DNA from: Lophium mytilinum
Lineage: Eukaryota
Assembly (NCBI GenBank): GCA_010093605.1
Contig: MU004186.1
Span: 2,274,616-2,308,982, forward strand
Direction: 5' to 3'
DNA: 34,367 nucleotides
How positions within the stretch are numbered: the stretch's first letter is position 1; every line of letters starts with the position of its first letter. Both the position numbers and the translations under genes were made by a program. A model generated the notes under the pieces. It was not told the DNA's origin. It saw nothing but the letters and a program-made list of their open reading frames with translations, and did no database searches. Below are positions 4,976-34,367 of this stretch, in pieces.

Positions 4976-7299
4976 TTAAAACCCTCCAGCGCCCCTCACT
5001 CTGTCAATCGCCCCCACAATTCCCGTCGCCCACGAAAACTTTCCAGGGTTCTTCCCAATAGCGCCCTCGGCCTCCTTTCCATTCTCGTCTCTCCACACGC
5101 CATCTTCCTGCGACGCCGCGCCGTACAGATGCGTGTTCTGATTCCTCCTTATCCCATCCAGCCACGCCTTGCAGATTACGGAGGAGTCGATCATGATATT
5201 CGCTTCTTGCGAGTGGTACCACGATTGCGTATCCTGGTTGCCGTTACCTTGAATGCCGACATGCTCATCGACAACCATGAGTTTGACTATCCATGTATCA
5301 GCGTCCATGCAAGCGGGGAAGTGATGCAGAGCGGGAGGAATGCACTTACTATGACAGCTTCGCTTCTTGAACTTGTTATGAATCGGTTTCGTCTGGTCCT
5401 TCCCGACGTAGAAATACACGTTCAAGTTCTTCCTCTCTTCCTTCTCGAGACCGGCATAGAGCTTGCTCGACACCATCTCGTTCGTCCCGCCTTGGAAGGG
5501 GAGAAGCTCGCCAGCGTCGTTGTAGCCGAGACAGACGTAGTATACTACCGTTATGCCTCTTCGAGCTGCGGCTTGGAGCTCAGGGAGGAGCGGCTCGGCG
5601 TTGAGGTTGGGGGTTTGGATGAATACGCTTGTCTTTGCGTTGCGGATACATGAGAGCCATGCTTCGTTTTGCGGGGTGTTTACGCATGCGTGATTGGGAG
5701 CGCCCCACGGCTTCCTGTTTACGAGAGCGATTGGGAAAGCCTCGTGGGGTGCGTGTGGTATTAGCGGTGTCATGTCTTCTGCAGGGTCGCATTCGGGTGC
5801 TGTCGCTTTAAGGTCTAGGTGGGTGGCTTCGTCTTTGTGTGTTCGTTAGGGTTTGTTCTCCTTCAATATTGGGCTTGCTCACTTAGATGTATGGCTACGC
5901 GATCCATCTTCTTCTCATTTCCTCGCGTTGACAATACAGACTGCACTCGCGCGATCTCATCCGCAATGGAATCGTCCCAATGCGGATCAGGACCCGTGTG
6001 TGTTTTCTCTCGTTCTAGATTTTGAGTCTGGGTTCCATCCGACTTCTCCACATTGACGTTTCCGTTAGCGGTCCGAAGACTCCCGTCTGAGTTGAACAAA
6101 CTCAAGAAGCTCTCCAATTCGAATGTGGGGTATTCGCCTTGGTTCACTGGTTTGTTATGCAGCGGTAGTGGCGGGTCCAGCTGCTTATCCCACGAGATCA
6201 AACAAAGGTCATAGAAAGAGTCGACAATCGGTCCTTCCAAGTGCGTCGCCATCTCGCAATTGTCGTTACTTTGGATGTTGTTCGAGCTGATGACTGCGAT
6301 CTTCCGGTCCACGACCATGAACTTGGAGTGGAAGGTTCCCAGCATCGGTCGATGGTAGTTCATGACCTGCAAGTCAACGTTTGGGATCTCTAGCGGGTGC
6401 GGCATATTGACTGCCTTCCCGCTGTATGCCTCTTCCGGCACTAAAGTATGGTTGTCTACCAACTGTCGTACTGTCAGCTCCCCATCCCCTTTCTCCAAAT
6501 AAATCATAGCACCTCCACTCACCTGTTTGATATGCCCTCGATCATAAATGATCTTCACCACCGCCTTGACACCCCTCTCCCCTGCCCTCCGACTTAACTC
6601 CCTGATAGCATCACAAATGAGCAACGAACTCTCGGAACTCAACCCTGCACACAATTAGCCCAATTGCACCCCCTACACCTCTCACGTTTCACACAACCTA
6701 CAAAAGTTCGTCGCCAAAAACACTTCCGACTCAGCTCTCGCAATCAAGTTACTCATGTGCCGACAAATGTCCACGATGTTCCCGACTATACTCATTGGGA
6801 TGCACCCACTACTGCCCATCAGACTCGGACTCACGCACCCCATTAGCGGGTCATGCTCCAGCGTCAGCAGCGCATCGTGGTACGCGCGCAAGAACAGCTC
6901 GCTGGGCCGCGTGTCGCCGAACTTCCCGCATTGGTACGCGCGCTCGAGATCCTCTGCCGTCGCGGGCGTGCGATTGGTAGACGCTTTGGGCTCGAGGACG
7001 GAAATGTTGCGGTCACCTGTCGCGCCGCCGGGTCCGTAGAGCGTCGCTGCGATCTTGCCTGGGGCCGTGCTGGGCGCGCGGGCGTATTCGGCGGAGACGG
7101 AGGCCGGGGAGGTGCAGAGCTTATACACCTTTTCTGAGATCTTGGTCGCCATGGTGGCGCGGGGGACCCAAGGCTGGAGGTGCCAGATGTAGAATGCTGT
7201 GGATAGAGAGACGAGTATGAATGTAGAAATGACAAGCTTGGGATTCGAGTGAAAGAGATTGGACGAAGTGGGTTCGGGGACACCAGGGAGGTGGGACAT
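4976..7299 (-). CDS. Phospholipase D/nuclease superfamily protein with two HKD motifs, 4 introns; possible alternative start at 7152
   Basis: ORFs 6682-7332, 5863-6654 and 4976-5773 join through canonical introns. The motifs are HSKFMVVDRKIAVISSNN and (spliced) HIKLMVVDEHVGIQGNGNQD, both HxKxxxxD. Confidence 0.85.
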
Positions 7300-7973
7300 C
7301 TTAAGCTTTCCCTGGGTGGTAGCTCTCACCACACCACCAAGGCAAATAAAGGACTACGGACCCGACTCTACGCGGTTCCAGGTCTCAGGTGCATGCACGC
7401 GAAAGCTTACCGTTTCCAAGCGCGAGGGTGAGAGAGAAAGGCTGGGTACGCGAACCGACTGGCCGTTGCAATCGAGGCCGCGCAATACTGCTGGTCGAGA
7501 CGTCATGGGCAAGCCCTCCCAATCAGGGACCGGTATGACGCGCTGGTGGGCAGGAATCCAGGGATGCAGGGCTGGGGAAACAAGCAATACCAAGGAAAAA
7601 CAAGCCTTTGAGCGCGCCGATCGCTGCTGGATGCGGGTTTGACAAGGGGCTAGCTTGGGAACGGCCGGCCCACGCGTCATGGCAGATCAGGGTTTAGAAG
7701 GGCACGGAAATAGATGTGGCATTGTCTGCTAGCATCATCATTCACACAGCGCCGCATATGGCCAGCTGAATGAGGAGCTCATGCCCCTGCCGAAGACGGA
7801 ACCAACTGGTCTAGTTGAGGTCAAGATCATAATCCATCAAATCCTCATAGTGGTACTTTATTCATACCGTCTATGCAGCTATCATTGCTCGTAATTTAGA
7901 CCCTCGGAGCATCTCCGCAACCAGCCTAACCTATCAACAAGCGCCGAAAACACCCCTCCAATCAAAGAGACAT

Positions 7974-10623
7974 CTACTCTTGAAACTGTACGGCAGACCT
8001 TGGCCAGACCCGTTTGTAGAGTGAGCAAGCAACTGCATCCAGAGGGTTGATTTTCCCATCGAAAGTGGCCTGTGTCTTGGTCAGTATATTTCAGGTTTGT
8101 CAATTGCTAGAAGAATGTCTTACCTTGAAGTACCCATGCGTGCCCAGGCTCTCACGGATAAAGCCGCTCCTACCCCTCTTCGTCCAAAGTTGCAGTGCTT
8201 TGAACCAAGCAACATCTTCCGAGTTGAAGAACATGTACCGTACAGTTACCAGCTTCTTGTGGATCTTGTACGGATGTCCAGTGAGAATAATGCGCTTGGT
8301 GACGACTCTGTTAGTGGAAGGTGCCAATGAAGTTCCTGTCGCGACCAAGTTCAGTGATTGCGGTGTAAGGTCTTCTGGGTCTGATGGGACCACTCGCTCA
8401 AAGTACAGAGCAGGCACCGAGCCCCATGTCAACGGGCCAATGAACGAAGCAATGGCATTGCGACCAGGATGGAGATAGCGGTCGAATTTATGGACGTCAT
8501 TAGGAGAGTTCCCGGCTGCTGAAAAGATGGGCTTGATGACCATTCTTCGTGGTCCACATTGGACTACAAATTCTGTCTTCGATTTGACCGGGACAGGATA
8601 GCTGGAGCTGAGGGTTATGCTGTAGTTCACAGACTGCAGAGAAATTGTTAGCGTCTGCGACAGCAGAATGGAGATGTATGAGTGACCTACGGTGCGTTTA
8701 TGCTCGTGGCGGAGCAGTGAGAACATTGAAAGAGTACGAGAGGGGTTGTACGAATCCTGGAATGATAGTGGTACGTTCTTGAGATGAACATTGACACGAA
8801 TGCCAGGCGCCACGCCTCCGACCGATGTTTCTCGAAGCACCTTCTTCACAGCGCCCTTGAAGTCTTTCACCTCCAAGAGACGCGGCCATTCTGATGGCTC
8901 GTGTGGCTTGTCTTCATCGGTCTCCCAATTACTGGTCCGCAGGCTCTGATTCAAACGTTAGTATGGACGATCTACTAGACAGGAGATTGGAACGCACCTT
9001 CAAGCCTCGGTACCTAGCGAGACGCTCCCTCGCTAGAACATTCGGGGGAAGTTCAATCTCGTCTGGAAACTCAAGATCCTCCTCAGCTTCGTCTTTCCGT
9101 GTCCTCCGATATTCAGCTAGCTGATCAGCCTCGTCTTCTGGAGAAGGATCCAAAAACATCTCCGATTGTGCATAAGTTGTCGGAGCGCCTTCAGTAGGTT
9201 CTGGTCCATTGGGATCCATTCCCTCAACACCATCAGCAGGATTTGCTGGTCCCTCCATGTCGAGATCGCCATCTTCATCTTCTTCGGCGTCCTCCAGATC
9301 AGACCCAGAATCTGACACGTCATCCAGATACCAAGCAGATTGATAGTTCGATGTACCCTTAGGAAGTCGTTTTGGCTTCGCGCCATAGGCAACATCTTCA
9401 TACTCGTCGGAAAAGTAATGATGGTCGTCTAGTAGCACTCCCTTCTTCTCTGAAGGTGCGATTGACATTGGATAATTCGACGCATCTTCCATGACAGCTT
9501 CTTCTGGCGCCAGCTCTTCAAGGCCTTCCTGATCAGCTGTGGGTTCTTGTAGTAAAGCCGGATCAACATCCTCCATCTCCACCTCGCCGTTGCGCTTTTT
9601 TGATGCCAGTGGTGCTGCAGTAATCTTGCCGATCTGGAAATCACCCCAGTCTCCAACAGTCACCAATCTATCTACGTTCAGACCCCGACCTCTCACCACG
9701 CCAGTCAGAACCACCTCTCCCGTTGCACCATCAGTCATGGCAGACTTTCTGGCAAGCCATTGAACATCTTCTACCATCATCCACGACCGTTGTTCCCTCC
9801 AGCTGATTCCCTTCGGTATCGTGGTGCAGAGTGACCGTACTAGGTTGGCAGATTCTTGTCGTGAGTCCAAGGAAAAGACCTTCTCTATCGCAGGTAGGAA
9901 ATGATTGATGTACGACAAAAGCGAGACGGCGGTTTGGGTTCTCCGTTTCGGCGGTTCGACAGCATCAAGGCCTTGGACCACTGTGAAGCAATTCGACAGT
10001 CCCTGACTCTCTATCGCCCGGAGAAGGTGCTCTCCTTTCGCATCCACCTCTTCCTCGGGTGAGAGCACAAAGACCACATAATCTGCAACTCTGCAAGCGT
10101 CAAGAGCAGCCAGAAGATCCCTCTTCACCATTATGTATGACACCTTTTGCTTGAATCGCTCGACGTTTGTCCGCACCCAGCCCTCCTCTGGCACCTCCAC
10201 TTCCAAGTCGACGCCTAAGTTTAGACTTCGAACTGCAGCGGCCGTAGAGAGGTTCGCGCATAACGGAACAATCGCGACAATTCTAGGCGCGCCATCTCGA
10301 CCGGAGAATACGCCAGTGGCTTTGAGGTGTTCATTGTGGTTCGTAAGGCGCTTCTGCTTCGCTTGATTCCGCCGGTCCAGCTTGGACATGACTTGTTGGT
10401 GTGGCGTCTTCCGTATTCCTCTCTCGGTCTCAATCTTACCTAGAGCCAAAGTTAGAAATGTTTGCATTCACAGGGCACTCAGCCCTCCCTGTATCAACGA
10501 GGAAAGTCGCGAGAACCAACCTTTCGACCGATCCCTCAATGCACTTTTCGAGGCATGCCGAGATTTAAATCCCTTCTGGATCGCCTTCGTCGTGCTCCGG
10601 TGGTGGTGGTCAATAGGCGCCAT
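7974..10623 (-). CDS. TSR1: 40S ribosome biogenesis factor Tsr1 (Bms1/Tsr1 family), 4 introns
   Basis: N-terminal [131 protein letters not shown]. Confidence 0.95.
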
Positions 10624-11312
10624 GCTGCCACCGGCCTTGAATCTGAATGGGATACTCGCCACGTTGGCTAGGATCTCGATCGAGGATAGTCGTGATGTTG
10701 AGTTTTGACAAGAGGCGTAAAAATCTTAGTGGGGGATAATTGCCTTATCGATAAGGATTGCAGACTGTGAATGCCCGACTCTCCGGGAAAAAAGTGGTAG
10801 TCAGCGAACTCGCGGTAATGCCACAAGAACAAGACATTCCCCTCGAGCTCACATGAATACACCTAAATGGTTTGAGGTCCTTTAAAATCCTACTGGAATA
10901 TACGGTATAACAGTTTTCGTACGCTTGACTGCGTGACTGCTCTACCGGCCACCTTATTCTACGGTGCTGGCTTGGCACGCCGGGCATGAAAAAAGTGGCA
11001 CACTCACCAAGATCTATCTTTTGCGGTCGTGTGTATACATGTCTGCCACTGCTTGGAGTGCTTCGACCGGTTTCCAGATAGCCCAAAGCTAAAAGGTTCT
11101 ATCTCTTTTACATTTCAAAAGATGTATTGAAGCACTCCAAACAGGGACAGACAAGTGTACAAGAGGTAAATGCGGGTTGAGTATGCCACCTTTTTCGTGC
11201 CCCGCGTGCTTGGTTAGCTTGCCACTTTCCTTCCCGGCCGAGGTCGAGCCGGCGCCATATCAAAAAATCAAAACCTCACGATTCTCAAGCTCCAACTAGC
11301 ACACCAGCAACC
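10624..11312. promoter_or_regulatory. Bidirectional promoter region shared by TSR1 and UTP7
   Basis: 689 bp between divergent ATGs. It contains the palindrome CCTTATCGATAAGG (10743-10756), repeated (GA)AAAGTGG-type motifs and a 32-bp inverted repeat. Confidence 0.7.
10975..11209. repeat. 32-bp imperfect inverted repeat (arms 10975-11006 and 11178-11209)
   Basis: Left arm GCACGCCGGGCATGAAAAAAGTGGCACACTCA versus reverse complement of right arm GCACGCGGGGCACGAAAAAGGTGGCATACTCA: 28/32 identical. Confidence 0.85.
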
Positions 11313-13055
11313 ATGGACATAACGCCGTCGGATCCGCCAGCAGCTCCTCCCACGCACCGGAAATCAAAAAGCATAACGCCCGCGCAGGCTGCAGAAAAAG
11401 CAGCGGTTCAGAAACACAGCGAGGACGCCCAAAGCACGTATGGCCGCGGAAAACATATTCGAACGCGCAGCGTGAAAGACAAGAAGCTGCGCGCAAACCT
11501 CAAATCTCTGGAGACCAAGTATCAAGATGCGACCCTCCAAGCCAAGAATGCCGAGATCCTCCTCGAACACACCTCCGGATTCCTCGAGCCCGAACACGCC
11601 CTCGAACGCACCTACAAAGTACGGCAAGACGAGATACGACAAGATGTCGCAATTGAGACGGCGAAGAAGGGCTTTGAGCTGAAGCTGGAGGGTCTGGGGC
11701 CTTACGATGTGTGCAACTATACGCGGAATGGGAGAGAGCTGTTGATAGCTGGGCGGAAAGGGCATGTTGCGACAATGGATTGGCGGAGTGGGAAGCTGGG
11801 CTGCGAATTGCAGCTCGGGGAGACTGTGAGAGATGCGAAGTGGCTGCATAACAACCAGTCTTTTGCGGTGGCACAGAAGAAGCACGTCTACATATATGCG
11901 CATGACGGTGTGGAGTTGCATAGGTTGTCGAAGCACATTGAGGTTACAAATATGGAATTTCTGCCCTACCATTTCCTTCTATGTACCACTGTAAGTGCTA
12001 TTTTACTATTCCCAGGTTTCAACAGTCTTGGGCCTTGCTAACAAGCTCCCCAGTCCAACTCTGGCGTCCTCCGCTATACCGACATGTCGACAGGCCAAAT
12101 GGTCACAGAACTCCCAACACATCTCGGCCCCACAACTGCTCTCTGCCAGAACCCCTGGAACGGGGTCATGCACCTCGGTCACCAAAAAGGCGCTGTAACG
12201 CTCTGGTCCCCAAACTCTACATCCCCTCTCGTCAAACTCCTACCCAACCACGGCCCCGTCCGAGCCCTTGCAGTCGATCGATCAGGCCGATACATGGTCT
12301 CCACCGGCCAAGACCGCCGCATGTCCGTCTGGGACATCCGAATGTTCAAGGAAATGCACGCGCACCACCTCCGACAGCCCGGCTCTACGATTTCGATCAG
12401 CGACCGCGATCTTACCGCCGTCGGATGGGGTACCCAGGTCTCAATTTTCAAACCAGACCTATTCACCAAAGCGCCAGATGACTTTGGATCAGGGCCGCGA
12501 CCGAAAGTTCCAAGCCCGTACATGCAGTGTGGCGGCGAAGGCCACGCAATTTCACGCCTTCAATACTGTCCGTTTGAGGACGTGTTGGGAATATCACATT
12601 CGTCTGGCTTCAGCAGTATTCTCGTCCCTGGCGCTGGTGAGCCAAATTACGACGCACTAGAATTCGGCACCAATCCCTACGAAACCGTTAAGCAGCGACA
12701 AGAAGGCGAAGTACGTGCGCTACTCAATAAGCTACAACCTGAGATGATCTCCCTTAATCCGAACTTGATTGGAAATGTGGATATGGCGTCTGCGGAGCAG
12801 AAGAAGAAAGAGAAAGACCTTGACGCTAAGCCGGAGGACAAGATCAAGAAGCTGAAGGAGAGAGGCCGGGGGCGAAATAGTGCGTTGAGGAAGCATTTGA
12901 GGAAGAGAGGACAGAAGAACGTTATCGATGAGCAGAAGGTTCGCGCACAAGAGGCGTTTGAATCGCAAAAGGGCAGGGAGAAGGATAGGGTTAAACGGTT
13001 GGAAGTTGAGTATGGACCTGCGCTTGCGAGGTTTGCGAGAAAAGGGGCAACGTGA
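11313..13055 (+). CDS. UTP7: U3 snoRNP/SSU processome WD40 protein Utp7 (BING4CT-type C-terminus); intron 11991-12053
   Basis: VKDKKLRANL, GFLEPEHALERTYKVRQDEI, YTRNGRELLIAGRKGHVA, FAVAQKKHVYIY, MEFLPYHFLL, CPFEDVLGISH, SILVPGAGEPNYDALE..NPYETVKQRQEGEVRALLNKLQPEMISL. The intron reads GTAAGT..GCTAAC..CAG. Confidence 0.95.
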
Positions 13056-16304: not shown

Positions 16305-16835
16305 TTCGGACCAGCAACAGTTTCTTAAAGCAATCTCGCATGAGCTTAGCCGGGCAGCTAGGCTTGGTAGAGGACATATCCGGGGGTAATGTGGTTGCAA
16401 TGGTTGTCTGGAGATGCGGCGTCCTAACCATCTCGATGGCCTCTCTCCCTCCCCGCTGTGCACTACGTCCCTACGCCGGACCAGCAAGAGTTTCTCGGAC
16501 TGTGATCTCTTTACGCAATGTAGCGGGGTGGTCTATGCGCGCAAAGCAGCCGGGGGCCGCGTCGACGTCGCCGTCATCCAGAGGTCCGACGTCCTATCCA
16601 TCCTGGAAGCCTTTTCTCCTCGCGGTGCATCCTGACGCAGCGCCAGATTGGTAAGAGTTTCTCGGACTGTAATCTCTTTACGCAATGTAGCAGGGTGGTC
16701 TATGCGCGCAACGCAGCCGGGTAGCGCGTCAATATCGACGTCGTCCAGAGCTGCGATGTGCTACTCCTCTTGCGAACCTCATTTTCCTCATGGCGCCTAA
16801 TGCCACGGCCCCAGACCAGCAGTAGTCTCTCTACC
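16305..16835. repeat. Degenerate tandem repeat, period about 167-170 bp, about 4 units
   Basis: 16486-16583 and 16653-16750 are near-identical (AAGAGTTTCTCGGACTGTRATCTCTTTACGCAATGTAGCRGGGTGGTCTATGCGCGCAA). The GACCAGCA anchor recurs at 16309, 16479 and 16814. Confidence 0.75.
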
Positions 16836-18977: not shown

Positions 18978-19800
18978 CCGAACATCTAGGGTGCCTCCAA
19001 TCAACCCTAGAAGACTCTCCTGATTGCGAAGACAGGATTTCCAGCCCAGGGAAATCACAGCCTCCAGGCGGAACATCCAGGCTGTGTCCTGCCATAGAGC
19101 AGCTTCTCTGAACATCCAGGTTGCCTCCTGCCATGGGGCTACTTCGCCGAACATCCAGGTTGCCTCCTGCCATAGGGCTACTTCTCTGAACACCCAGGTT
19201 GCCTCCTGCCACGGGGCTACTTCTATGAAAACCCAGGTTGCCTCTTGTGATGGAGCAGCTTCTCTGAACACCCAGGTTGCCTCTTGTGATGGAGCAGCTT
19301 CTCTGAATATCCAGGTTACCTCCTGCCATGGAGTGGCTTCGTCGAACTTACGCACTCCCTTCTGCTATAGAGCGGCTTCGTTGAATATCCAGGTTGCCCC
19401 CTATCAATTCTAGAGGGTCCTCTAAGTCACACTAAGAGAGTGCCGCGATTTTGCAGGGTGGCCTCGAACTTGGCAATGGTCTGTCTTGCAATCCCGGCCT
19501 TCCGAACCTTTCGCCTACACAATACATGTACGCGCGCGTGATGCGGTATTCATTGCGGGGAGTGCCCACTGTTGAATTGTGGGATTTCATGACCTCCGAG
19601 CGGGACATTCAGGTTACCTCCTGCCATGGGGTTGCTTTGCCGGACATCCAGGTTACCTCCTGCCATGGAGTTGCGTTGCCGAATATGCAGGTGGCGTTCT
19701 AGCAATCTTGGAGAGTCCTCCAGATTGCATTGAGAGGGTGGCTAGTCTTGAATAGTGGGTTATCACGGCCTTCTAGCCGGACATCCAGGTTGCCAGCGAA
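18978..19800. repeat. Hierarchical 39-bp minisatellite
   Basis: About 9 units of AACATCCAGGTTGCCTCCTGCCATGGGGCTACTTCTCTG at 19072-19410, about 3 more at 19604-19700, and solo copies at 18981 and 19780. Confidence 0.9.
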
Positions 19801-22992: not shown

Positions 22993-24354
22993 CTCATCAC
23001 GGATGGGGATGAGTTCCTTTCGCTGGAGAACGAGAAGGCTACCAAATATGATAGCAAGTGAGAGGACCGACCTCGGGTCACCCTCGAGGGGCTGAAGGTC
23101 GATCGAAGCCCGTTGCATGAAGCCGTAACCGTCAATTTCAGGACGTTTCGCAGCCACGAGGACCTCGTTTATTGCTCGTTAGTCTGCAAGCCGCACAAGG
23201 TGCCCCGTCAGGAGTACATACCCGTGGTTTGACGCTCACTTCCCACGTGATGAGGATAGACCGCTGCGAGCGGTTCCATGCAGGGCGTATCCTGCGAGGA
23301 CGTCTCGGACCCTACGAACACTCTAGTTGGGTCTCCACGGGGAGAGCCCCATTGCCTCTAGAGTGTTTGCTTTTAACTCGACTCAGAAAGCCTCGCTCAC
23401 GTTGCGGGCCTAACTTCCCGCATACCTAAGACCCTACGACAGGCCTACTCCCCCCCAACATTGCGAAGAGGACCGTAATATCCCGTGGCTGTCATAAGAT
23501 GCTGGCACCATATCGCAAAGAATGGAACCAGCTCGACGATTCTAGCCGAACGAGTTTACTCCTGGGCCGAGACTTGCCATTACTGCTGCGAGGAGGGCTA
23601 CGGTATCCGCGACCGTCTTGCCAAGCCGTCACGCCGCTGAAAAATCTCCTATCAGCCCAACTTGACCTCCCTTTGGTGGGGACATATTATCATTACTGCG
23701 AGGAAAGTCGTGGCATCCGTGACGCGCCTACGAAGGCACTGTGCAGGTCCATACACACTAAAAAATTCGTCCAAGATCACATCGTTGTCGTACGCTGGAC
23801 GGTAGATCCTAAACTCAGCGGCGTGAACACTTAGGGTATCCTAGTGGATGTCGCCACTGCTTGGAACCTTACTAACTCTATCTGGCCTGGAAACACAGGC
23901 GTATGCGGCGGAACTCAGCTTCGTTGGCGCGCCGTGGTCGCGATTGGACGGATTCCCGGGGCTCGATGCTGTGTATACAACGACGTGAATTCTTGGGAGG
24001 TAATCTTACTGCTCCAGGGATTGGCAAACTTCGTCTGACGAGAAGGTAGGTGTGGGTTAGTGATAACTCCTGCTCCGCTTGCCCTACGTGACTTTGCAGC
24101 TCAGAATGGAGACTCCAGAAGTCGATGTCGTGGACGTAGGCGCCGGGAAAGCAATGGCAGACCCCGCGATAGTCCGTGACTTTGTCTAGACACTTAAGAT
24201 TAAAGTAAACCCTCTTTAATAGTAGCCTTGCCTTCGGTTTCAGAGCGCAGTCGGGTTCATTCTTCACGTCCAATCAAAGAAATGATGCGTGCACCAGAGT
24301 TCCGAAATTCTGCAGATTAAACTAAACCTTATTCGCAAGCCCTATATTGAGACC

Positions 24355-24607
24355 ATCTGGGCCCTAGGACATCGTCGTAGGCCTAGAAGTGACGCAGACA
24401 GCCCATATATCCCACGTTGAACCATCTGGAGCCTCACCCATCGCCACGTAACTCCACTCCAGGGAGTAACGCAGACAGCACCGCCTAGGGACACTCCGCA
24501 ATCATGTGAGGCCTCAACCATATGGAGCCTCAGCTATTCAGAGCCTCAAGCATCTGGAGTCTCAGCCATCATCACATGTTTCCACCCCAGAGAGTGGCAC
24601 AGACAGC
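24355..24607. repeat. Degenerate repeat: three units of about 50-60 bp ending in CAGACAGC, with internal 16-bp subunits
   Basis: CATCTGG..GCAGACAGC or CACAGACAGC at about 24355, 24422 and 24550. Consecutive 16-mers CTCAACCATATGGAGC / CTCAGCTATTCAGAGC / CTCAAGCATCTGGAGT. Confidence 0.65.
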
Positions 24608-27600
24608 CCGAGGCCTGAACTACGTTGCTAACACCCTATCCACAGTCCCCGCGCCAACGACCTTGTATGATTCCGCAGCCCTATCTTAGTCACCGCATCG
24701 GACTACTGTTATCCTTGCCTCTATCGACGACAGAAACGCTTGGAGCTACGCTATTTTTCGATATAGATTCGGAGTCATGCGGATGAGGCAGCCGGTACCG
24801 GGACTGCCGGTGGATTGGCTATTTCTGGCTACCGTTCTATCTCCTGAAGATATAGGATCGCCTCTTCGGTTGATGTCTTCGCACTATCGATAGCGAGAGC
24901 GCATCTTCTCTGGCACTATCGGATCGAGGCCGGTGCAGGGAATGTCTGTGGAGTTGGACACAGTAAGGAAATGTTGTCGATGTCTGGCTTCGTCGTACTC
25001 GAGAGGAGTGGTAGTCTGGTCCTCGCAGGTTCCAGTCTTTGTAGTTTATACACAATGACAGGCTATAGGTTTCAGCACACTGTATCGACACTGCTGGGGT
25101 TTTCCCTTTAGGATTTGGGATGTCCAATGGTGATGTCGAGGGTCAAGCGGTGCATACTGGACTACCTCTTGACCAATTTGCTGCTCAGAAGCCAGGGAAC
25201 CCCCGACAGTGGTGTCGAGTGGGCAAGTTGGAGCCAAGCCGTGATGAGTCCATGTGCCCAATCTTATAGCTTAGTATTGTAAGTACATGTTCAACCCAAT
25301 GCTCGAGCCCTCTTTCCACGCCACGGTCGTGAAGTGGATTATACATTTTTAAGGAGACTTAGAGGCGCACGTATTTGGCAAAGGAAACCGCGCAGCGCGC
25401 GCAAATTGATCCAGAACACCAGTGGGCGAGCGCTGAAGAAGCCGTAGTCTGGACGCTGCGTAAGTCATCCACGAGGCGTAGGTTCATCGTCTTGTCATGT
25501 GCATCTGAGTGGAGCCTTTCAAGTCTTCCAACGTACTAGACCCACCCCTACGTAAGGCTCCCATCGCTTCTCCCTCCCCCTATAGAGAGATTGAGCGCCT
25601 TCTACCCATCCGGGCCAGATTGTGCACGGCAGCTGCAGTTGAGTTCGACCCGATCAAGCACCATTGCGCGGAGCTTTTCATGCTGTTGAGCTTCAATCTC
25701 CAAAAGATGACATCTCTCCACACGCTCTCGTCTTCTCGATGCGCTTTGTCTTCGCAGGGACTTTCTTTCTGTCCTTTTCCAAAGCAAGCGGCTCGATCCT
25801 CCCTGTATACTCCTCGGACTCGGGGGCGAGGGGATTTGTTTTCTCTTCCAGAATCGTGTAGCGCCCATCCCTGGTATTTCTGTCTATCGGAAACAAGAGG
25901 CGCCTACATGAAGCCTCCAACGTACATCTTCGTTCAGATCGTCCCGCGTGCACCTTTGACTGCGCTCACTAAGTTAGTATACGGGCTCGGGTCCTTGCTG
26001 TTGATCACGGCTACATACTACTCGTTAGAGGGGTTTGCTTCCTTCATAGTGTCCACTAAGTTCAGGGCAGGGTACTTAGATGCAACACGGGATTACAGTT
26101 ACCCGAACGACAGTGATACGCCTCCAGGGACGTTAGCGATGGGGCCTGTAGCCCTGAGAGTACAGAGGCTTAGCGCGAGGATACTGAGAGGCGGGTAAGC
26201 ACCCAAAGGCATCGCGGATAGATTCGTGTTAGCACTGGAGCATGGAAACTCAGCGCACGATACTGGGAGGCGATATAGTGCCTGTCACTCTCGCTCGGAT
26301 CCTCGGATTGCTCGGCGTGGTGAGTGTGAGAGGAGAGCAGCTGCTTGGTGCCGTCGCTGACGGGCTCTCGTGTAAAATTTCTGGCTACCTGGATTGCAGC
26401 AACCGCTTAGCCCCAGCGTGGTTGGGATGTGAGACAAGAATGAGGGAAATGATCGAGTATAGCTCCTCGAAGCTCTTAGCTTACATCTCGGGCATCTTGA
26501 TCACCACATCATACTCAGGCTTGGTGAGCCCGAGCCCAATTCCTTGCGAGGTGCTTTCATTAGGCCGGAGAACGGCGATGGAAGAAGGCGAATCATCTGT
26601 AGAGATCACGGTGATGCGGCTCTTCCATCAAGGTGGAACTTGGTTCAATCTCAGTATCCGGCAAAAACTATAGTCGCGTCGGCAGAGAGGAAATACAGGT
26701 ACTCTCGAAAGTACATGGGAAGACCGACAGTATCTGCCAGACCTCTATTCTCGAGGTTGAGCATTCCAAGTGTCTTTTGCTCATCACGGGCGATCTTCTC
26801 ATACCGCTTCCTGCCGCCTGCGCCTTTGCCCCACTCGAATTCGGCACCTGTGTTGATATAAAAGCCTGGAGAAGCCTGGAAGTCATAAGAGAGTATACCA
26901 AGCCGCTGTTGGTTGAGTCTGATGCATGCAGGGCGAATGGCCAGGAAACGTGGGGTCTTCTCTTCTTGAAGGTAGAAAGGAAAGCATGGCGAGTCAGACG
27001 GCGGTGATAGTATAGGAGTAAGGTAGTGAGGCTATCCGAGTACTAATGTACCTCAAACCGATATCCCAGACCATTTCTTCCAGCGCAGAGATTCAACCGA
27101 CCGTACCGTCTGCCCAAACGCGCCGTCTCCGCCTTGGAGGGCCTTCCTTGTAACTGGAGGTTCGCCTTGCCGCTCTTTTGAATTTTAAACGGTCTACCTT
27201 TGTAGGTTAGAGAAGCAACCTTACAAAGGTACGACGGGCATGTGTCTTTCGCTAGTTGGTGATGGATTGCATCGCCTGGTAGGCTCCGATTGAAGTTCTC
27301 GTCAATGCTGCTATGTCCCAAGACCTCAACGACGTCCGTCTAGTACTCGCCCCCCCTTCTGGTCCAATGATTCCTCTCCGTATTGGTAAAGGACGGTTAT
27401 CATCAGCACGGTGTAGCGATGTCGCCAGGCCTAGAAGTCGCGGAACTAACAGACTCGCCCCAAATAAAATCAGAAACTACGACGCGATCTTGCATCCCTC
27501 AAGGAACATATATCCGCTGCTTTCTGAGTTTTTCCAGAGCGGCCTTGAATGTCGCGTCCGAGAACGATCGTCTCCAAGGCATTAGGCGCGATATCGTCAC

Positions 27601-28161
27601 GCTCCATCGCTCCCTCAATCCGAACCTGACGCCACCGTGTTTGTCGGGGGGTGGGTCATCTCCATCAGAATGACGCCGGGCTCGGGCCTTCTTTCTCTCT
27701 CGCTTTCTAGACATGGGGGTCCACGTGAACTCCGAAGAGATCACCGTAGTCGGCGGCTCGGCGAAGCAATGTACCCCAGTGGCAATAAGCCCAACATTTT
27801 CTCCTATGACACTGTCTGTTTATGATAGACGAAGGGTGGGGTAATCGAGTAGCTCCAGAGCGAGATTTCAGCTCTCTCACCTCAGCTGAATTTACGATCT
27901 CTGTTGACATCATCAATTCGCCGCGACATCAATTCCAACTTCATAATCAGCCAGGACGACACAAGAAGGCTGCCCATAAGTTCCGGGTGTTGACGGAGTC
28001 AGATCACGGAGATCAGAGACTAGAGATCGGCCTCAAATTGACGGCACTAAAGACGGAATAGTAGACTTGCTAGCTGTGTTCGCGCCTCCCTTTCAAGAAA
28101 CTTGTACCTCCTCGACTGCTGGAAATTCTCGCGCTTCAACATTTGCTAGACGATTGGCTTT

Positions 28162-28503
28162 CTATTCTGCTACGAGTCTTTTACTCTGCTTTGCGCGCCA
28201 TTCATCTCCCAAGGATAATCGGGCATCCTTGGTCTCAGCCAACTCCGACGTTATGCGATCTCTCTCCTTTTCTGCCTCTTGCCTTTTCTCATACGCTTTC
28301 TTCCATAAAGCATTGAGGTCGTAAAGGAGTCGAAGGTCGATAGCCAACAGCGTTGCCACCAGTACCTGAATGTCCGTAAAATAGATAGAACAATGCCTCA
28401 GTGCCTGGACCAGCGCGAGTCGTTCCTTATTGAGCCTTTCAACTTGCTTCTTAGAGCATGCTACAAAGAGATCATTGCTGGCTCCATTTGCGCGGTCGAT
28501 CAA
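28162..28503 (-). pseudogene. Fragment of a possible coiled-coil protein gene
   Basis: Charged helical translation (LNALWKKAYEKRQEAEKERDRITSELAETKDARLSLGDEWRAKQ) that continues past a TAG. No family recognised. Confidence 0.25.
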
Positions 28504-28972
28504 TGTTGGAAGTGGCGGTAAGATGACGAGGTATTGACGACTTTTAAGACTGCTAAGAAAGAGCTGAGCTTGAGATAAGAAATTCTAAAGGGCCTCGAGC
28601 TTATGTATCCAAAGGTCGATGAACAAATATCGGATCAGATGAAGTGAGGGCTTCGACCAGAACTCGAGCAGTAAACGGGACAAACCTGTCAGCTACGGGA
28701 CATTGTCCAAGAGTTCGAAGAGGAAATGAAGACGGACCAGGCGGATACTCGAGGTCAATGCGAGGCTTCAAGCAAGCAGCTGCAGCTAAAACAGTTGCAT
28801 CCACAGCCCATCCGTCATTCCGGTTCCTAACCAGCTGCCGCTCGAGCTGCCGTTCGAGCTGCGGTACGAGCTCCTGACTCTATTGGGCGGCGTGGAGGTC
28901 ACGCTGATGGATGTAATATTTGGAGCTCCCATACGACGAAATACACCATAGGAGCCTTGCAGAAGACGCAAC

Positions 28973-29136
28973 TGTCACGAGTATCAGTACACGGGACGTT
29001 GCATATGCAGAATGTTGATTGTATTAACTATCTAGGAGAGGCTGGAAGGGAGAGTACACAGCGTTAGCTAGTGTACGGCTCCTTCTAGCCGTCATTAGGG
29101 GGCTCCTTTACTAAGCAGGCCGTAGCCTCCCTAACA
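28973..29136 (-). repeat. 3' LTR (about 164 bp)
   Basis: Starts TGTCA (28973) and ends TAACA (29136; TGACA with one RIP-type change). It lies at the GC/AT boundary and adjoins the PPT. There is no second copy in the window to confirm it. Confidence 0.75.
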
Positions 29137-29148
29137 ATTGCCCCCCCC
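29137..29148 (-). other. Polypurine tract
   Basis: The minus strand reads GGGGGGGGCAAT immediately before the TG of the 3' LTR. Confidence 0.75.
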
Positions 29149-29482
29149 ATAATAAGTAGGCGTCCTCGCCTATGCATCCTAAAGAGAGAGAGAAAAAGAA
29201 AAAGGGGGCATTAAGAAGTACTATACATACTCTTAGGGGAAAGGGTGCTATTTAAGGGTATATTTTTTTATTTAGTTAGAGTATTAATAGTGCAGGGGGT
29301 GTAGTAGCGTAGTGCTAGTATAGTGGCGTAGTACTAGTATAGGGGGTAGTTATATACTATTACTATTAAGAGATAAACTATATAAAGTCGCCGTAGCTAG
29401 TATAGAGAGGGTGCAAATTAAACTATAATTACCTAAAGGTAATTAAGTAGTAATTCTTTACTTCTTAGTACTATCTATAGGC

Positions 29483-32455
29483 TTAATTCTTATAATATAA
29501 ATGCTTCTACTTAGGCTCTATAGATGGGTTCTCCTTAGCTAGATCCTGCAGCGCGTGCTTGTATTAGCTTAATCTTATAGAAGGGATCTCTACTTAGGGT
29601 TCGCGCATTTATAGGTTCTCTTAAGTACTAGATATAACGGGTTGTTCCGGTAGCGGCGTTTCTAGAGTATTCTAGTATAGTAAGTTTTAGTTATATACCT
29701 AGTTATACTACAAGTTAGGCTTAGTAATAAGCTATTTCTCTTAGTTATGCACCTAGTTATACTGTAAGTTAGGCTTAGTAATAAGTTATTTCTCTTAAGA
29801 GGAGAGTATATTATACTCTTAGAGAGGGTGCTCTAGCTACTATAGGGAGTATTCCGGGTTAATTTTTAGTTACTAGACTTCCGGCAGTTACTTTAGTAGA
29901 GCATCTATAGAAGGTAGAGTCTTATCTTATAGTAATAGTTTTCTCTCTAGTAGAAGGCGGCTATTACTACTAAGGCCTAGGTAGCGGTTTATAAAAGCTG
30001 TAATAGATAGGGGAGCTAAGGTAGGCTACTTACTATTACGCAGGTTTAGTTAGTTCTATAGTAAGCTAATAAGGGTAGTTGCTATAAATAGGGAGCTTAG
30101 TATTTATAACGCAGTAGGTATACCGCGCATAAGGCCGGTAGCTTAAGGCTAGAGTTATTCTATAGGTAAGGTATTAGTACTTACTATAAAAGGCGAGCTT
30201 AGTATTTATAGCGTAGTAGGTACTATATACCTAACTTAAGTAGGTAATATTACCTATAGGTTGCCTTCTACCCGCTCTACAGTATTTATATTTTTAAAGT
30301 TTAGAAGCGGCGCTAGCATATCCTCTAGTAGCGGGTAACGCGGAGTACTAGAAGTGCCCGCTACATATTATATACGCTTTGCGTACGCATTATTTATAGC
30401 TTTATTAGTATTATTAAAGTTCTAGAAGTCTATATTTAGGGGGACTATTCTATTAAGAACTATATTATAAGCGCCGGGATTAGTAGCTGCTCTAATAATA
30501 GCTCTAATAAGCTTATTCTTACCCTTTATTTAGTAGTCTAACAGCGCGTTTATAAGCGCTTCTTAGCTTAGTATAACTTCTATTAGCTAGTTTATAAGAT
30601 TTCTTGCGCGCTCGGCTTAGTTGCAGTATAACTCTAATATTTCTAAAGTATAGTTATTAGAGGTGTAAATTACACGCGCTATAGTCTCTAAAACTTAGCG
30701 TTTACTATATATAGCCTGCATAGTTTCCTCTATACTAGCTCTAAGTGCTTACAGCGCGCGGCTTCTAAGTATATCTAGCTTAGTTTTAAGCGCTTTATTA
30801 TCCCCCTATAGCTTAAGAAGCTATTTATATTAGAATATTACCTATGCTTATATATTAGCTATATTTCTAAAGAATACAAAGTTCTTAGCTTATAGAGTTT
30901 TATACTTAGCTTATAGCTCCGCGAGCTTCTTATTAACTCTATTATAACTATAGCTAATATTCTACTTCTTAACTACTATAGCCCTTAGTATTATATATAA
31001 GACGGAGATCTTATATTTATATTTATCTTTCTTCTTAATAAACTTGCTTCTAATTATTATTAGTTACAAGTTAGGGTATAGATTTGCAGTTATTATATTA
31101 TAGAAATCTTGCTAGAATAAGTTATATTCTAGGGTGTACTAGTTATTCTTATAAATTTAGAGCGTATAGTTATTATATACTTTATCTTTATATAGTACTA
31201 ATATGCGGCGTATAGGCTCTATATAGACTTAGTTATCTAGTTATAAAGGTAAAGAAAGAGAAGGTAGTTTCTATAAGGTCTACTCTAGGTTAATAATATA
31301 TCTATATTATAGTACTACTAGCTAAGAGATTATAAATTTATCCTTATATACTCGCGGTTGCGGGCCTTTATTTATGGGGGGTTAATATCTTAGCTATTAG
31401 TTACCTAGCTACTATTAGAGCTATACCTCTATAAGTATTTACTCTAGTTATAGTTCTAATAACTATTCCTAGCGGTTCTATATTTCCTGCTAGAGTACTT
31501 ATTATTAGCCCTGTAGAAGGGCGCTATATAACGCAGGCAAGCTGCCTTTAAAAGATATAAATAACGCATAGGGCTTAAAATTAGCGTTATTATTATTAAG
31601 GTTAATAATAAATCTACTAGTTAGAGCTATTCCGCAATCGGCTTCTAGGTGTTCTAGCGTAAGCGCTAGAACCGCCGTCCGGGGATTAAGGCCTGTTCGC
31701 GGTATAAAGTACAGCCTAAGCCCTAGAAGCTATACAGGTTTCGTAGTAATTATTAGAGGGCCTATTACTAGCTACTTATCTAATTATATTTGCTAGGCGT
31801 AGGTAAGAGATAACTAATTTAGTGTATAGAATTACTTAGGGTCTAGAGAGAGACTATAGGTAGGGGTTATATTAGCTATAATATATAACTTAGCTATAGA
31901 CGCGCTTACTATAATTTACCTATTATAGGTAGCTACCTTAGAAATCTAATTTATAAGGCGGCGTTTAGCTCCCTTATAGCCTATAGTAATATAGTTATAG
32001 TAAAATAGCGTATACTACTATATACTCTTCTTATTCTAGACTAAGTATACGGCGCCTATAGAGACCCGGCTAAGATAGAAGCGTAGGGCCTTAGTAAAGT
32101 TAGAGAGCTAATTCTTCTATAGAGTTTTAGCCTTAATTTCTTCTACTTTAAAGAGTAGTAATATCTTACCCGTAATATAGTTAAATAAGCGCGTAAACCG
32201 CGGGGGGAGGTTATTCTTTATTAGCTCTATTATAAAATTATAGAGGGTAAAGTTATACTACTTAGGCAGCGTATACGCGTTCCCTTAGTTTATAGTCTTT
32301 ACTGCTAGCGGAATAACTATCTCTAGGTCGCCTAGGGCCTATAGTTTTAGTGGCTTGCAAACTAAGAGTACTGCTATATTTTAGGTGGCGCGTTCTGCTA
32401 GTATAGTACGGGGGGTAAAGGTGTCTTTACTAGTATTACGTTCCTCTAAAGGTAT
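29483..32455 (-). pseudogene. RIP-destroyed extra ORF (about 990 codons) between pol and the 3' LTR; both ends approximate
   Basis: One frame can be followed without frameshift, and the stops read are TAA/TAG (RIP products of CAA/CAG/TGG). Internal repeats have periods of 54 and 102 bp. Reverting RIP gives a coherent coiled-coil segment and P/Q-rich segments. Confidence 0.6.
29687..29794. repeat. 54-bp tandem duplication inside the extra ORF
   Basis: TTAGTTATRYACCTAGTTATACTRYAAGTTAGGCTTAGTAATAAGYTATTTCTC twice; the copies differ only by transitions. Confidence 0.9.
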
Positions 32456-32641
32456 AGTAAAAAAGGTATAGAGAATATAGGTAAGTTTTTTATAAGAGGT
32501 TGTTATTAAATATCTTTTTTTAAGTAACGTTATATACTTAAAAAAGTTAAACGCTAATTTACTAATAAACCTAGAGTAGTTCGCGCTAGCTACATTCTTC
32601 TAGAATAATAAGAAACGCTAAATACTAGAAAAGAAAAAACG

Positions 32642-34272
32642 CTAACGCCTTATGCGGCGCTCGCGACGCCGCTTATAGTTTATAACTATAAATAGTACGT
32701 CCTCTATTATATACTCTATAGGTTCTTCTATTTTCTTCTTATATTCTTTCTATCTAACTATATACTTCTTACCCTGCGGGGTATACTTTTACCGTATAAT
32801 TTTTTCTACTATCTATTTCTCTTCCCTATTAATAAGTAGAGGTAGTGGCGGTGCTATACCTCTTATAAAAGGATCTAGTATAGCTTATTTAAGGTGCGTA
32901 ACGCTTATTACTAGGTATATCTTACTATATATCTTTAGTAGGTATAGCTTATACGCTAGATTATTAATTCTTCTTTTTATCTTAAATAGTTCTACTTTTA
33001 CTATAGATAGGGCTATACTACTAGGTAGCTTAAAGCCGGGCTTTATACTACGCACTACCTTTAGGTATACTAATCCTTCTAGGTTTAGAATAGTCCTCTT
33101 TCTATTATAGTGCACGGCTATTCTTACCTGCGCTAGCTTAATAGCGTCTATAATATCTTTATATATAGCGTCCCTATTTACTAGAAAGTCTAGTATATTC
33201 TTACTACTCTTTCTCTAGAAGGTCTTAGGCGGGACTCTATATAGTACTTTAAATAGCGTATACCCTATAGACTTATATATAGCCGTATTTAGGCTATACT
33301 CTACTATTAAAAGTAGGTTCTACTATTCTATCTTATACTTACCTATAAGGAGGCACCTTAAGGTTATTTCCACCATTTAATTTATACGTTCGGCTTGCCC
33401 GTTAGCTAATAGATAGTAGAATGTTATTATATACAGGTTAATACTGCATCTCCTAAATACCTCCTGCTAGAAATTACTAGTAAACTTTAGGTTCTAGTTA
33501 CTAATAATTAATTCTAGTAGGCCCTATATGCCGTATAGCCTATTAAATAGATAGGCTGCCTAGACTTCTATAGAGTTAGTATTAAGGCTAGGTATAAGTA
33601 GTACAGCTTTTAAGAATTTATCTATTACTATTATTAGTATATTAAAGCCTTGCAGCGATACTAGAAGTACTACTATAAAATTAATCGCTACTATAGTAAA
33701 AGGTTTATCTAGGGAGCGCACTAGTTTTAGCTTACTATATAGTTTCTTTCTACTATGCTTTAATAATTAGTACTTTAGACAGGCAAGAACATACTTATCT
33801 ACTCTTTTCTTTAGCCTTAGAATATATACTTTACTATAGAGCTTTTAATAGGTTTATATTAATTCTATATACCCGCTTATATTATAGGCTACTTAGATTG
33901 CGTTATCTACTATTATTATTAGAAGGCACACTCTATAGAACTCGCTATTATTAAAGTATAGTAAGCCCCTATTAAACTTAAAGCTATAGTAGGTAGCTGT
34001 CTTATCTAGTAATACCCTTACTTTATTCTTAATATACTAGAGGATTATACTAAATATAGGGTCTTATAGAAGGTTCTCTTATATTCTAGATTTATACTTA
34101 TTCTTAACTATTATAGTAATTATAGCCTAGTAATATATAGATTCTTCTCTATTCTTATTCTACTCTATATCTTCTTCTGCTAGTAGGCGTAAAAGGCCAT
34201 CTATATTATTATAGTATTTGCCCAGTTTATATATAATAGTTATGTCTTTAAGGTATATTATAAGGTACATTT
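32642..34272 (-). pseudogene. pol remnant: RNase H C-terminus, integrase (HHCC, core, GPY/F), chromodomain
   Basis: IIYKLGKYYNNIDGLLRL (RIP form of the I.hkpGk.n..aDgLSRl motif), AYNISGY..ACLKY (HHCC), YYLLANGQAERIN (YHPs.nGQAER), LFKIKRRINNLAYKL..IYLVISVTHLK, EK*IVEKII..KKYIVR*KEY. Confidence 0.9.
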
Positions 34273-34367
34273 TTAGGGTTAGGGTTAGGGTTAGGGTTAG
34301 GGTTAGGGTTAGGGTTAGGGTTAGGGTTAGGGTTAGGGTTAGGGTTAGGGTTAGGGTTAGGGTTAGG
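34273..34367 (+). repeat. Telomere (TTAGGG)n
   Basis: 15 perfect TTAGGG units plus TTAGG running to the end of the window, in the orientation expected for a right chromosome end. Confidence 0.98.

Follow-up and report, generated by a model that had tools for sequence, protein, structure and literature searches.

A chromosome end of the wood-dwelling fungus Lophium mytilinum carries the fragment of what appears to be a Ty3/gypsy chromovirus, followed on the same strand by the ruins of a long reading frame that may have been an accessory gene of the element. The frame lies in phase with the truncated pol and keeps a codon-type periodicity over three separate segments, and the ORF relic is probably real. 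Our tentative interpretation is that the minus-strand stretch between 32455 and about 29800 was a sense additional ORF of a Ty3/gypsy chromovirus, situated between pol and a 3' LTR. The 2.65 kb would then be a RIP-destroyed protein-coding gene of about 885 codons that shared one repeated unit with pol. The present copy is dead, with 76 stops in the relic and a pol that is cut by the telomere, and can do nothing. All coordinates refer to the window, the whole stretch of 34,367 nucleotides of contig MU004186.1 that was analyzed.

One host ORF in the window is 100% identical to an L. mytilinum protein. The window reaches the end of a chromosome, where TTAGGG repeats (15.8 copies, 34273..34367, no strand assigned) directly cap the truncated pol and adjoin a RIP-mutated block of about 5 kb (29250-34270). 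In 17 of 17 intervals of 300 nt between 29301 and 34400, the TpA/ApT ratio was 1.55-2.68 and (CpA+TpG)/(ApC+GpT) was 0.03-0.38, compared with 0.44-1.38 and 0.89-1.71, respectively, in 10 intervals from 26001-29000. Neither TGA nor TCA occurs within 29250-34270, which bears out an earlier remark, made from the sequence alone, that the RIP-mutated DNA lacks TGA. The RIP indices reach the same extremes in pol as in the 3.4 kb downstream of it, without a break between the two, and the implied pre-RIP GC contents are alike (~0.49 and ~0.51, respectively). From the telomere to about 29250, this is one uniformly RIPed block. A search of sequencing runs listed 2 that contain the stretch, both from the sample that may be its source, and listed none of RNA. 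The stretch was also compared with contigs of the sets X1-X3 from sequencing runs at 80% likeness, a comparison in which uncovered parts and contig ends do not count as evidence and whose outcome was left out of the interpretation. Short pieces of 80-90% likeness from other loci fell in pol (32829-34139), one 47-nt piece from another locus fell at 29401-29447, and none was placed in 29463-32806. One contig set (X2) has a contig end at 32443 and no exact contig for 32444-33782, and a 'joint' from 29295 to 34096 is supported by 23 letters. A source-like contig alone spans the whole stretch, and no other full copy of pol or of the downstream segment was found among these contigs.

The RIP-mutated pol remnant (32642..34270, minus strand) has 22 stops in 543 codons and comprises the 3' part of a Ty3/gypsy pol, namely the integrase zinc finger, core, SH3-like domain, and chromodomain. 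Its stop lies about 15 codons past the chromodomain, at 32642. By BLASTP (E 3e-32), the X-read translation of the minus strand over 32642-34270 matches P0001, a 2152-residue gag-pol protein with PF17921 and PF00385 that is encoded on a 9.5-kb ENA contig. The match begins in the integrase zinc finger and reaches into the chromodomain, and it substantiates the earlier placement of the pol end after the chromodomain at about 32642. P0001 was the best pol match found (E 2.6e-27, 26% identity, 114 bits), and PF00385 is present in 6 of the 13 gypsy relatives found. Pfam applied to the RIPed pol read gave weak, sub-threshold matches to SH3_Tf2-1 (E 0.0024) and Integrase_H2C2 (E 0.065) and no direct match to Chromo or rve. 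Judged by its integrase, with a predicted H2C2 zinc finger, DDE core, and C-terminal chromodomain, this pol is assigned to the chromodomain-bearing Ty3/gypsy chromovirus (Metaviridae) type. RT, gag, and the 5' LTR upstream of the integrase are missing because the telomere, whose repeat begins at 34273, cuts the element. A word-index search with the pol fragment at 'near' lengths returned 0 matches; since it misses even pol, such a search is weak for RIPed queries.

Past the pol stop, a coding-type signal sets in after 187-300 nt (about 32455/32340) on the same strand and runs to about 29800. The relic that we delimit from it (29801..32455, minus strand) has 885 codons with 76 TAA/TAG stops, and its possible start is an ATA at 32455, possibly an ATG changed by RIP, as the sequence-only reading suggested. 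Positions 32455, 30721, and 29608 share the pol frame, so that both ATGs singled out by that reading (30721 and 29608) are confirmed to be in frame; further in-frame ATGs occur at 30319 and 30130. Frames 0, 1, and 2 of 32455-29801 contain 76, 108, and 114 stops, respectively, and the lowest of the three frames in 300 dinucleotide shuffles had a mean of 91.3 stops (sd 5.2) and a minimum of 75. TA dinucleotides in codon phases 0/1/2 number 65/141/132 in pol, 42/66/85 in 32641-31601, 46/58/81 in 31300-30401, and 25/49/43 in 30400-29801, and the depletion at the pol phase, at codon positions 1-2, in the three downstream segments has p values of 7e-4, 6e-3, and 0.018. A six-phase codon model was trained on the RIPed pol, with margins of about 44 log units in cross-validation within pol. 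It chose the sense strand in frame 0 for 3 of the 6 segments tested, and did so in 32341-31601, 31300-30401, and 30400-29801 by 17-41 log units. TA is palindromic, so that one frame of the plus strand has just as few stops, and a low stop count cannot by itself tell the strand. The strand is therefore taken from the codon model; a test of purines at codon position 1 did not separate the strands in 32641-31601. The phase match with pol is in itself a 1-in-3 coincidence, and an accessory gene does not require one. The single pol-sense frame had originally been drawn from 32455 to about 29483, and the coding-type signal upholds it as far as about 29800, but in 29800-29251 the three frames have 27/11/18 stops, with frame 0 the highest. 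With the frame signal lost in these last 550 nt, the ORF is therefore about 885 codons long and not 991.

Several features of the former protein can be read through the mutations. A patch at 31301..31600 (minus strand) has 18 in-frame stops per 100 codons, where about 11 are expected of non-coding DNA, and is ambiguous in the coding model; it fits a former CAA/CAG (Gln)-rich linker. At 30560..30733 (minus strand), the translated frame has a 3.5-residue hydrophobic periodicity (z 3.1-4.9) of the amphipathic helix or coiled-coil type, in agreement with the coiled coil that had been proposed near 30950-30500. The periods of 54 and 102 bp noticed previously were both recovered, the former as a tandem repeat at 29687-29797 and the latter as an in-frame 102-bp (34-codon) duplication at 30075..30222 (minus strand), whose 46-nt cores (30075-30120 and 30177-30222) are 85% identical. 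Windows of 19 residues reaching a Kyte-Doolittle mean of 1.6 numbered 2 of 867 in the ORF (one site, with a stop inside), whereas the soluble pol, taken as a control, had 23 of 525, and the maximum mean within the first 40 residues of the ORF was 1.02. These values match the earlier impression of a protein that has no signal peptide or transmembrane helix and is not Env-like. A retroviral or errantiviral Env was rejected, with no signal-peptide or transmembrane-type stretch beyond RIP noise.

The accessory-gene interpretation hinges on whether the relic lay within the element, ahead of its 3' LTR. Pol and the relic are separated by a T-rich spacer (32456..32641, minus strand; 25% GC) in which a short motif recurs three times and the coding model is ambiguous. 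It contains PPT-like purine runs, one of 9 nt at 32521 and one of 7 nt followed by TG near 32600-32592, which could mark a candidate LTR start. The usual place of the PPT in chromoviruses is 40-120 nt past the pol stop, and the presence of PPT-like runs with TG/TA at just this distance argues against an accessory gene. In favor of the gene, the coding signal stops just where, at about 29800, a tandem-repeat tail starts that itself ends where RIP fades. This RIPed tail (29251..29800, minus strand) lacks a frame-0 coding signal and contains a 19-bp repeat at 29302-29350 as well as the 54-bp tandem repeat, each unit of which opens with an 8-nt purine run and then TA. The tail is a putative 3' LTR by its position, and if the relic is an accessory gene, its 550 nt (29800-29251) are more likely to be the 3' LTR than the site at 29149 suggested from the sequence alone. 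That suggestion relied on a G8 run taken as the PPT (29140..29147, minus strand). The run exists, but it lies in a zone of faded RIP where the DNA is hardly RIPed. The DNA beyond is not RIP-like and the window contains no LTR-type repeat, and the PPT and LTR proposed there are therefore not supported. The original accessory-gene reading keeps its pol stop, its co-oriented ruined coding stretch, and its non-Env character but not its LTR site. PPT-like candidates stand at four places (~32600, 32521, 29796/29742, and 29148), and a search for a second LTR or for an LTR-type or TIR-type repeat in the window and the block found none, nor did one appear when sequences were compared as purines and pyrimidines so as to disregard RIP transitions.

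Homology searches with the downstream region returned no relatives. With the X-read of 1164 residues as query, phmmer had 0 matches at E <= 0.001 among 1.84 billion representative proteins. Pfam in six frames of 29150-32641 gave 0 families at E <= 1, and its sensitivity is poor here, as the two sub-threshold matches of the pol fragment show. In a comparison with 13 gypsy polyproteins, gag parts included, BLASTP found nothing and phmmer --max nothing better than E 1.7. An ORF scan of JGI metagenome contigs produced 387 pattern matches, 0 of them confirmed by tblastn, the patterns being RIP-type Asn/Tyr/Lys words. Neither Pfam in six frames nor phmmer detected RT, RNase H, integrase, or protease downstream of pol, and therefore the region is not simply a second pol; Retrotrans_gag and zf-CCHC likewise had no Pfam match at E <= 1 in the ORF region. 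The pattern Y-x2-Y-x4-Y-x4-Y, the RIP product expected of a CCHC knuckle, has one match, at 31177, and was set aside as being at chance level, with 3 further matches in plus-strand frames. Capture of a host gene was judged unlikely because a parent gene in the proteome of this fungus or of related ones should have surfaced in the phmmer protein search.

It is possible that the relic never belonged to the element that left the pol fragment, and that a short 3' LTR is instead hidden in about 32600-32340, with an abutting RIPed repeat behind it or else the gag of another copy that lies next to it or in tandem. The neighbor could be a lineage-specific repeated gene, a TE fragment, or the long gag of a same-family copy sharing the LTR, and mosaic AT-rich blocks do occur in RIP-active fungi. 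Such a junction would account for the purine runs followed by TG/TA at about 32600-32592 and at 32521, just past the pol stop, and for the ambiguity of the codon model over the first 300 nt past pol, where sense frame 0 leads its mirror antisense frame by 1.7 log units. Yet the gap of 187-300 nt is tight for a PPT and an LTR and tighter still for an LTR, a PBS, and a leader, and a pol-phase TA bias is already present in 32641-32342 (9/17/25, p 0.023). P0001 has about 1000 residues ahead of RT that are of low complexity and rich in Gln, Asn, and Tyr, and therefore a long gag exists in such elements; the one RIP-compatible CCHC pattern would suit a gag as well, but that pattern is at chance level and the gag parts of the 13 gypsy polyproteins are dissimilar to the relic. 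The absence of homologues is expected of a fast-evolving gag or of an orphan gene, but a widespread transposase, RT, or helicase should surface in phmmer, given that the RIPed pol scores 114 bits at 26% identity. 'Complex transposons' arising from multiple insertions have been described for fungi (PMC3248453).

We consider it unlikely that the region held no gene at all and was a long non-coding 3' region or a junk repeat, with a periodicity that is compositional or derived from in-frame tandem duplications. The stop density of the relic is intermediate, which also counts against the accessory gene: its 8.6 stops per 100 codons are twice the 4.1 of pol and exceed the 3.8-5.9 obtained by simulated RIP of five host ORFs (4-6 being expected of RIPed genes), and the shuffles give an expectation of about 11.3. 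At least 1 of the 300 shuffles reached the observed stop count, homologues and Pfam families are both absent, and AlphaFold2, run on the single sequence of 31601-32455 with no alignment, returned a mean pLDDT of 31.5. Set against this are the depletion of TA in the same phase in three non-overlapping segments, all three of which fit the sense-frame codon table of pol better than any of the five other phases, and the heptad periodicity of the translated frame. The 54- and 102-bp repeats cannot cause a signal of 2.5 kb because they cover less than 300 nt. A C-terminal extension of Pol, in which the TAG at 32642 would be a RIP product and the polyprotein would have run some 950 residues further in frame, is very improbable. 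The shared phase, a TA-phase bias that continues across the junction, and a spacer whose 62 codons hold only 2 stops in frame 0, where the other frames have 5 and 9, are what it would predict. However, the T-richness of the spacer by itself lowers the stop count, and a 25% GC content, a position-1 GC of only 0.15, the repeated motif, and a codon model that does not call the spacer sense-like all speak against an extension. A long post-chromodomain extension is also absent in P0001, P0002, P0005, and P0007, the 4 proteins examined of the 13.

If the relic was an accessory gene of the element, its expression may have relied on a spliced or internally started message from the 3' part of the element RNA, by analogy with the downstream genes of env-carrying Ty3/gypsy elements. 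Its product would have been soluble and self-associating, beginning with a domain to which a linker rich in Gln, a helical or coiled-coil region, and finally a tail rich in Pro and Gln were joined, and it might have helped to assemble or tether particles and not to fuse membranes. It is conceivable, if still doubtful, that a lineage of Dothideomycete chromoviruses carried a sense gene of about 885 codons in the env position, encoding a soluble Gln/Pro-rich coiled-coil protein without database relatives. Such a gene would add a sense-strand, non-Env accessory gene to the fungal Ty3/gypsy elements, for which the documented case so far is the antisense brtn of Boty, and would represent a new kind of accessory gene distinct from both brtn and Env. 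A keyword search of open-access text turned up no account of a fungal chromovirus with a sense ORF behind pol. The copy described here is single, dead, and without relatives and therefore cannot settle the question alone, but if the ORF was part of the element, it would prompt a search for intact relatives with a testable function. For the reading of RIPed DNA in general, every frame with few stops is mirrored on the opposite strand by one with just as few, and RIPed repeats can be sought cheaply by comparing sequences as purines and pyrimidines.

Among known systems, plant Ty3/gypsy elements such as Athila and Bagy2 have sense additional ORFs or env-like genes downstream of pol, according to PMC7264820, and errantiviruses have env downstream of pol (PMC13524379). 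They share with the relic a sense ORF in the env position, whereas the relic has no signal peptide or transmembrane stretch beyond RIP noise, shows no homology, and resides in a fungal host. The fungal element Boty/BcGypsy1 of Botrytis cinerea carries the additional gene brtn, of unknown function, between pol and the 3' LTR, and further predicted ORFs are mentioned for other B. cinerea Ty3/gypsy classes (PMC7264820, PMC8365987). Compared by description only, Boty likewise combines a fungal Ty3/gypsy pol with an additional ORF behind it, but brtn is antisense to gag-pol, and the relic is sense and has only a presumed place inside its element. The 'complex transposons' of fungi, which PMC3248453 presents as multiple insertions at one locus, resemble the present case in that extra coding material lies beside the Ty3 domain set and the copy is degenerate and riddled with stops; unlike those described there, this copy revealed neither the termini of a second element nor a known extra domain. 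P0001, the best pol match found, is similar through the chromodomain, but it ends about 100 residues past it, has its long low-complexity region on the gag side, upstream of RT, and is dissimilar to the downstream ORF. MAGGY, Cft-1, and Skippy are fungal chromoviruses of Ascomycota. With fungal chromoviruses the L. mytilinum fragment has in common the integrase H2C2 zinc finger, core, SH3-like domain, and chromodomain and a pol stop soon after. It differs from them in that only the last third of pol remains, with no LTR placed, and in that another 3.4 kb, RIPed to the same degree and bearing an ORF relic in the same orientation, follows pol.

The window closes in 15.8 copies of the telomere repeat TTAGGG (34273-34367) and thus represents a chromosome end. 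Lophium mytilinum, a saprobe, is a Dothideomycete of the order Mytilinidiales, and one of its proteins matches the Tsr1-type host ORF at 8929-10467 with 100% identity. Ordinary housekeeping genes (2380-13055) are separated from the telomere by no more than about 20-30 kb; they are an Stc1-domain ORF (2380-3084), a PLD-like ORF (4976-6654), Tsr1 split over two ORFs (8100-10467), and a WD40 protein resembling BING4/Utp7 (12042-13055). Beyond them are a tandem duplication of about 165 nt with 77% identity (16449-16779) and seven copies of a 39-bp (13-codon) unit (19032-19421), with several frames open on both strands, which may represent either a minisatellite or a gene for a repeat protein. Related 134-nt copies lie nearby (19607-19740), and the last 5 kb or so ahead of the RIP block (24000-29000) contain short ORFs only.

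From about 29250 to 34270 the DNA has undergone saturating RIP. GC drops from about 0.52 to about 0.33, and in all 17 block windows of 300 nt TpA/ApT is 1.55-2.68 and (CpA+TpG)/(ApC+GpT) is 0.03-0.38, compared with 0.44-1.38 and 0.89-1.71 in 10 flanking windows; no TGA or TCA is left anywhere in the block. The telomere repeat (34273) directly adjoins the integrase-coding interior of a RIPed retroelement (34270), so this chromosome end seems to have arisen by breakage inside the element and subsequent healing through addition of telomere repeats, with the loss of RT, gag, and the 5' LTR. When a second sequencing run of the same sample was compared over 28000-34260, the exact contig ended at 32443 and restarted at 33783 at one third of the depth; tangling of repeats in pol and lower coverage near the chromosome end are candidate causes, and a single contig of the first run spans this stretch.

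What remains of the chromoviral pol is a minus-strand frame with 22 stops in 543 codons (34270-32642, read from 34300); the two remaining frames have 92 and 78. Translated with X at stops, it matches 13 Ty3/gypsy polyproteins, of which six carry a Pfam chromodomain. P0001 (E 2.6e-27), the best relative, is an intact 2152-residue gag-pol on a 9.5-kb contig with the composition of an AT-rich genome. Its BLASTP alignment (E 3e-32) takes in the integrase zinc finger, the core, and the SH3-like domain and continues into the chromodomain, which agrees with the sequence-only reading that pol ends at 32642, about 15 codons past the chromodomain. Pfam recovered SH3_Tf2-1 and Integrase_H2C2 from the same translation, both sub-threshold, so RIP strongly blunts profile searches; a word-index search with the pol fragment at 'near' lengths returned nothing.

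The stretch 3' of pol is, in our judgment, quite probably the decayed remnant of a coding sequence about 885 codons long. Stop counts alone mislead on strand in RIPed coding DNA: because TA is palindromic, every frame with few stops is mirrored by one equally poor in stops on the opposite strand, as is found in both pol and the extra region (29150-34300, both strands), and strand is not decidable from such counts. In 32455-29801 (885 codons) the pol-phase frame has 76 stops versus 108 and 114, while the lowest of three frames in 300 dinucleotide shuffles averaged 91.3 (sd 5.2, minimum 75). In each of three separate segments, codon positions 1-2 of this frame are depleted in TA (42/66/85, 46/58/81, and 25/49/43 by codon phase; p 7e-4, 6e-3, and 0.018); the counts in pol are 65/141/132. 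A codon model with one table for each of the six phases of RIPed pol, which gave margins of about 44 log units in within-pol cross-validation, assigned 'sense, frame 0' to 32341-31601, 31300-30401, and 30400-29801 with margins of 17-41 log units. It was ambiguous in the first 300 nt 3' of pol and in 31600-31301, a patch with 18 stops per 100 codons that fits a former Gln-rich linker.

The observation that a frame runs from 32455 to 29483 is partly confirmed: the coding signal extends to about 29801, but it is gone in 29800-29251, where frame 0 is the richest in stops (27/11/18), and 29483 is not reached. In-frame ATGs are present at 30721 and 29608 as had been claimed, with others at 30319 and 30130, and so are the 54- and 102-bp repeats. 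Hydrophobic periodicity of 3.5 residues occurs at 30733-30560 (z up to 4.9), and, as the earlier reading held, no signal peptide or transmembrane helix rises beyond the RIP-produced level of the soluble pol control. Stop density is 8.6 per 100 codons, twice the 4.1 of pol and above the 3.8-5.9 of five host ORFs from the window after simulated RIP (in silico mutation of 85% of CpA/TpG sites), which speaks against a clean ORF. That the stretch is no gene at all we regard as unlikely.

A 1164-residue translation of the extra region, with X at stops, had no match at E <= 0.001 among 1.84 billion representative proteins. Nothing was found by Pfam in all six frames of the region or by phmmer at maximum sensitivity against the 13 polyproteins, none of 387 pattern matches in a metagenome scan was confirmed, and a single-sequence AlphaFold model was unusable (pLDDT 31.5). 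Because the pol fragment, although RIPed to the same degree, reaches 114 bits against a relative of 26% identity, this lack of matches would argue against a transposase, RT, or helicase of a widespread family and against a recently captured host gene. It would leave a rapidly evolving protein of accessory, gag-like, or orphan type.

From this one dead, telomere-cut copy, we only tentatively favor the reading that the ORF was once an accessory gene of the element, in sense orientation. The layout would be pol, then a T-rich spacer of 187 nt, the ORF, and a RIPed non-coding tail of 550 nt that carries tandem repeats; this tail, whose end coincides with the RIP end, would be an ordinary-sized 3' LTR. 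The PPT and 3' LTR had been placed at about 29149, and a G8 run does exist there (29140-29147), but by this point RIP has waned (the CpA+TpG that survive number 0-2 per 50 nt above 29350 and 4-7 below 29150). The LTR of a repeated unit is expected to be as RIPed as the remainder, so the barely RIPed adjacent DNA counts against this placement. No LTR-type or TIR-type repeats were found inside the block, and none linked the block to the remainder of the window, even with all transitions ignored. Candidate PPTs are purine runs with TG/TA directly behind them: those at 29796/29742, where the non-coding tail starts, and those at about 32600-32592 and 32521, just 3' of pol where a PPT customarily sits.

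The latter two runs would fit a rival reading that we hold to be only slightly less likely, in which 32600-32340 contains a short LTR and a neighboring repeat or the long gag of an adjacent copy comes after it. A long gag is not far-fetched, as about 1000 residues, partly Gln/Asn/Tyr-rich low complexity, precede RT in P0001; however, the 187-300 nt between the pol stop and the coding signal are tight for an LTR, PBS, and leader, and the extra ORF is similar to no gag among the 13 polyproteins. That the stretch, which is in phase with pol, was a C-terminal extension of Pol strikes us as highly improbable.

Degenerate 'complex' fungal elements are described as arising by multiple insertions (PMC3248453). 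Keyword searches of open-access text found no sense ORF 3' of pol in a fungal chromovirus. Additional ORFs (aORFs) between pol and the 3' LTR, both sense and antisense, are well described in plant elements (PMC7264820). The fungal case treated there and in PMC8365987 is brtn of Boty/BcGypsy1, and more such ORFs are predicted for other Botrytis classes. Whereas brtn is antisense, the extra ORF of Lophium mytilinum is in sense with pol; if it was an accessory gene, it would be an aORF, a category already known rather than a new one.
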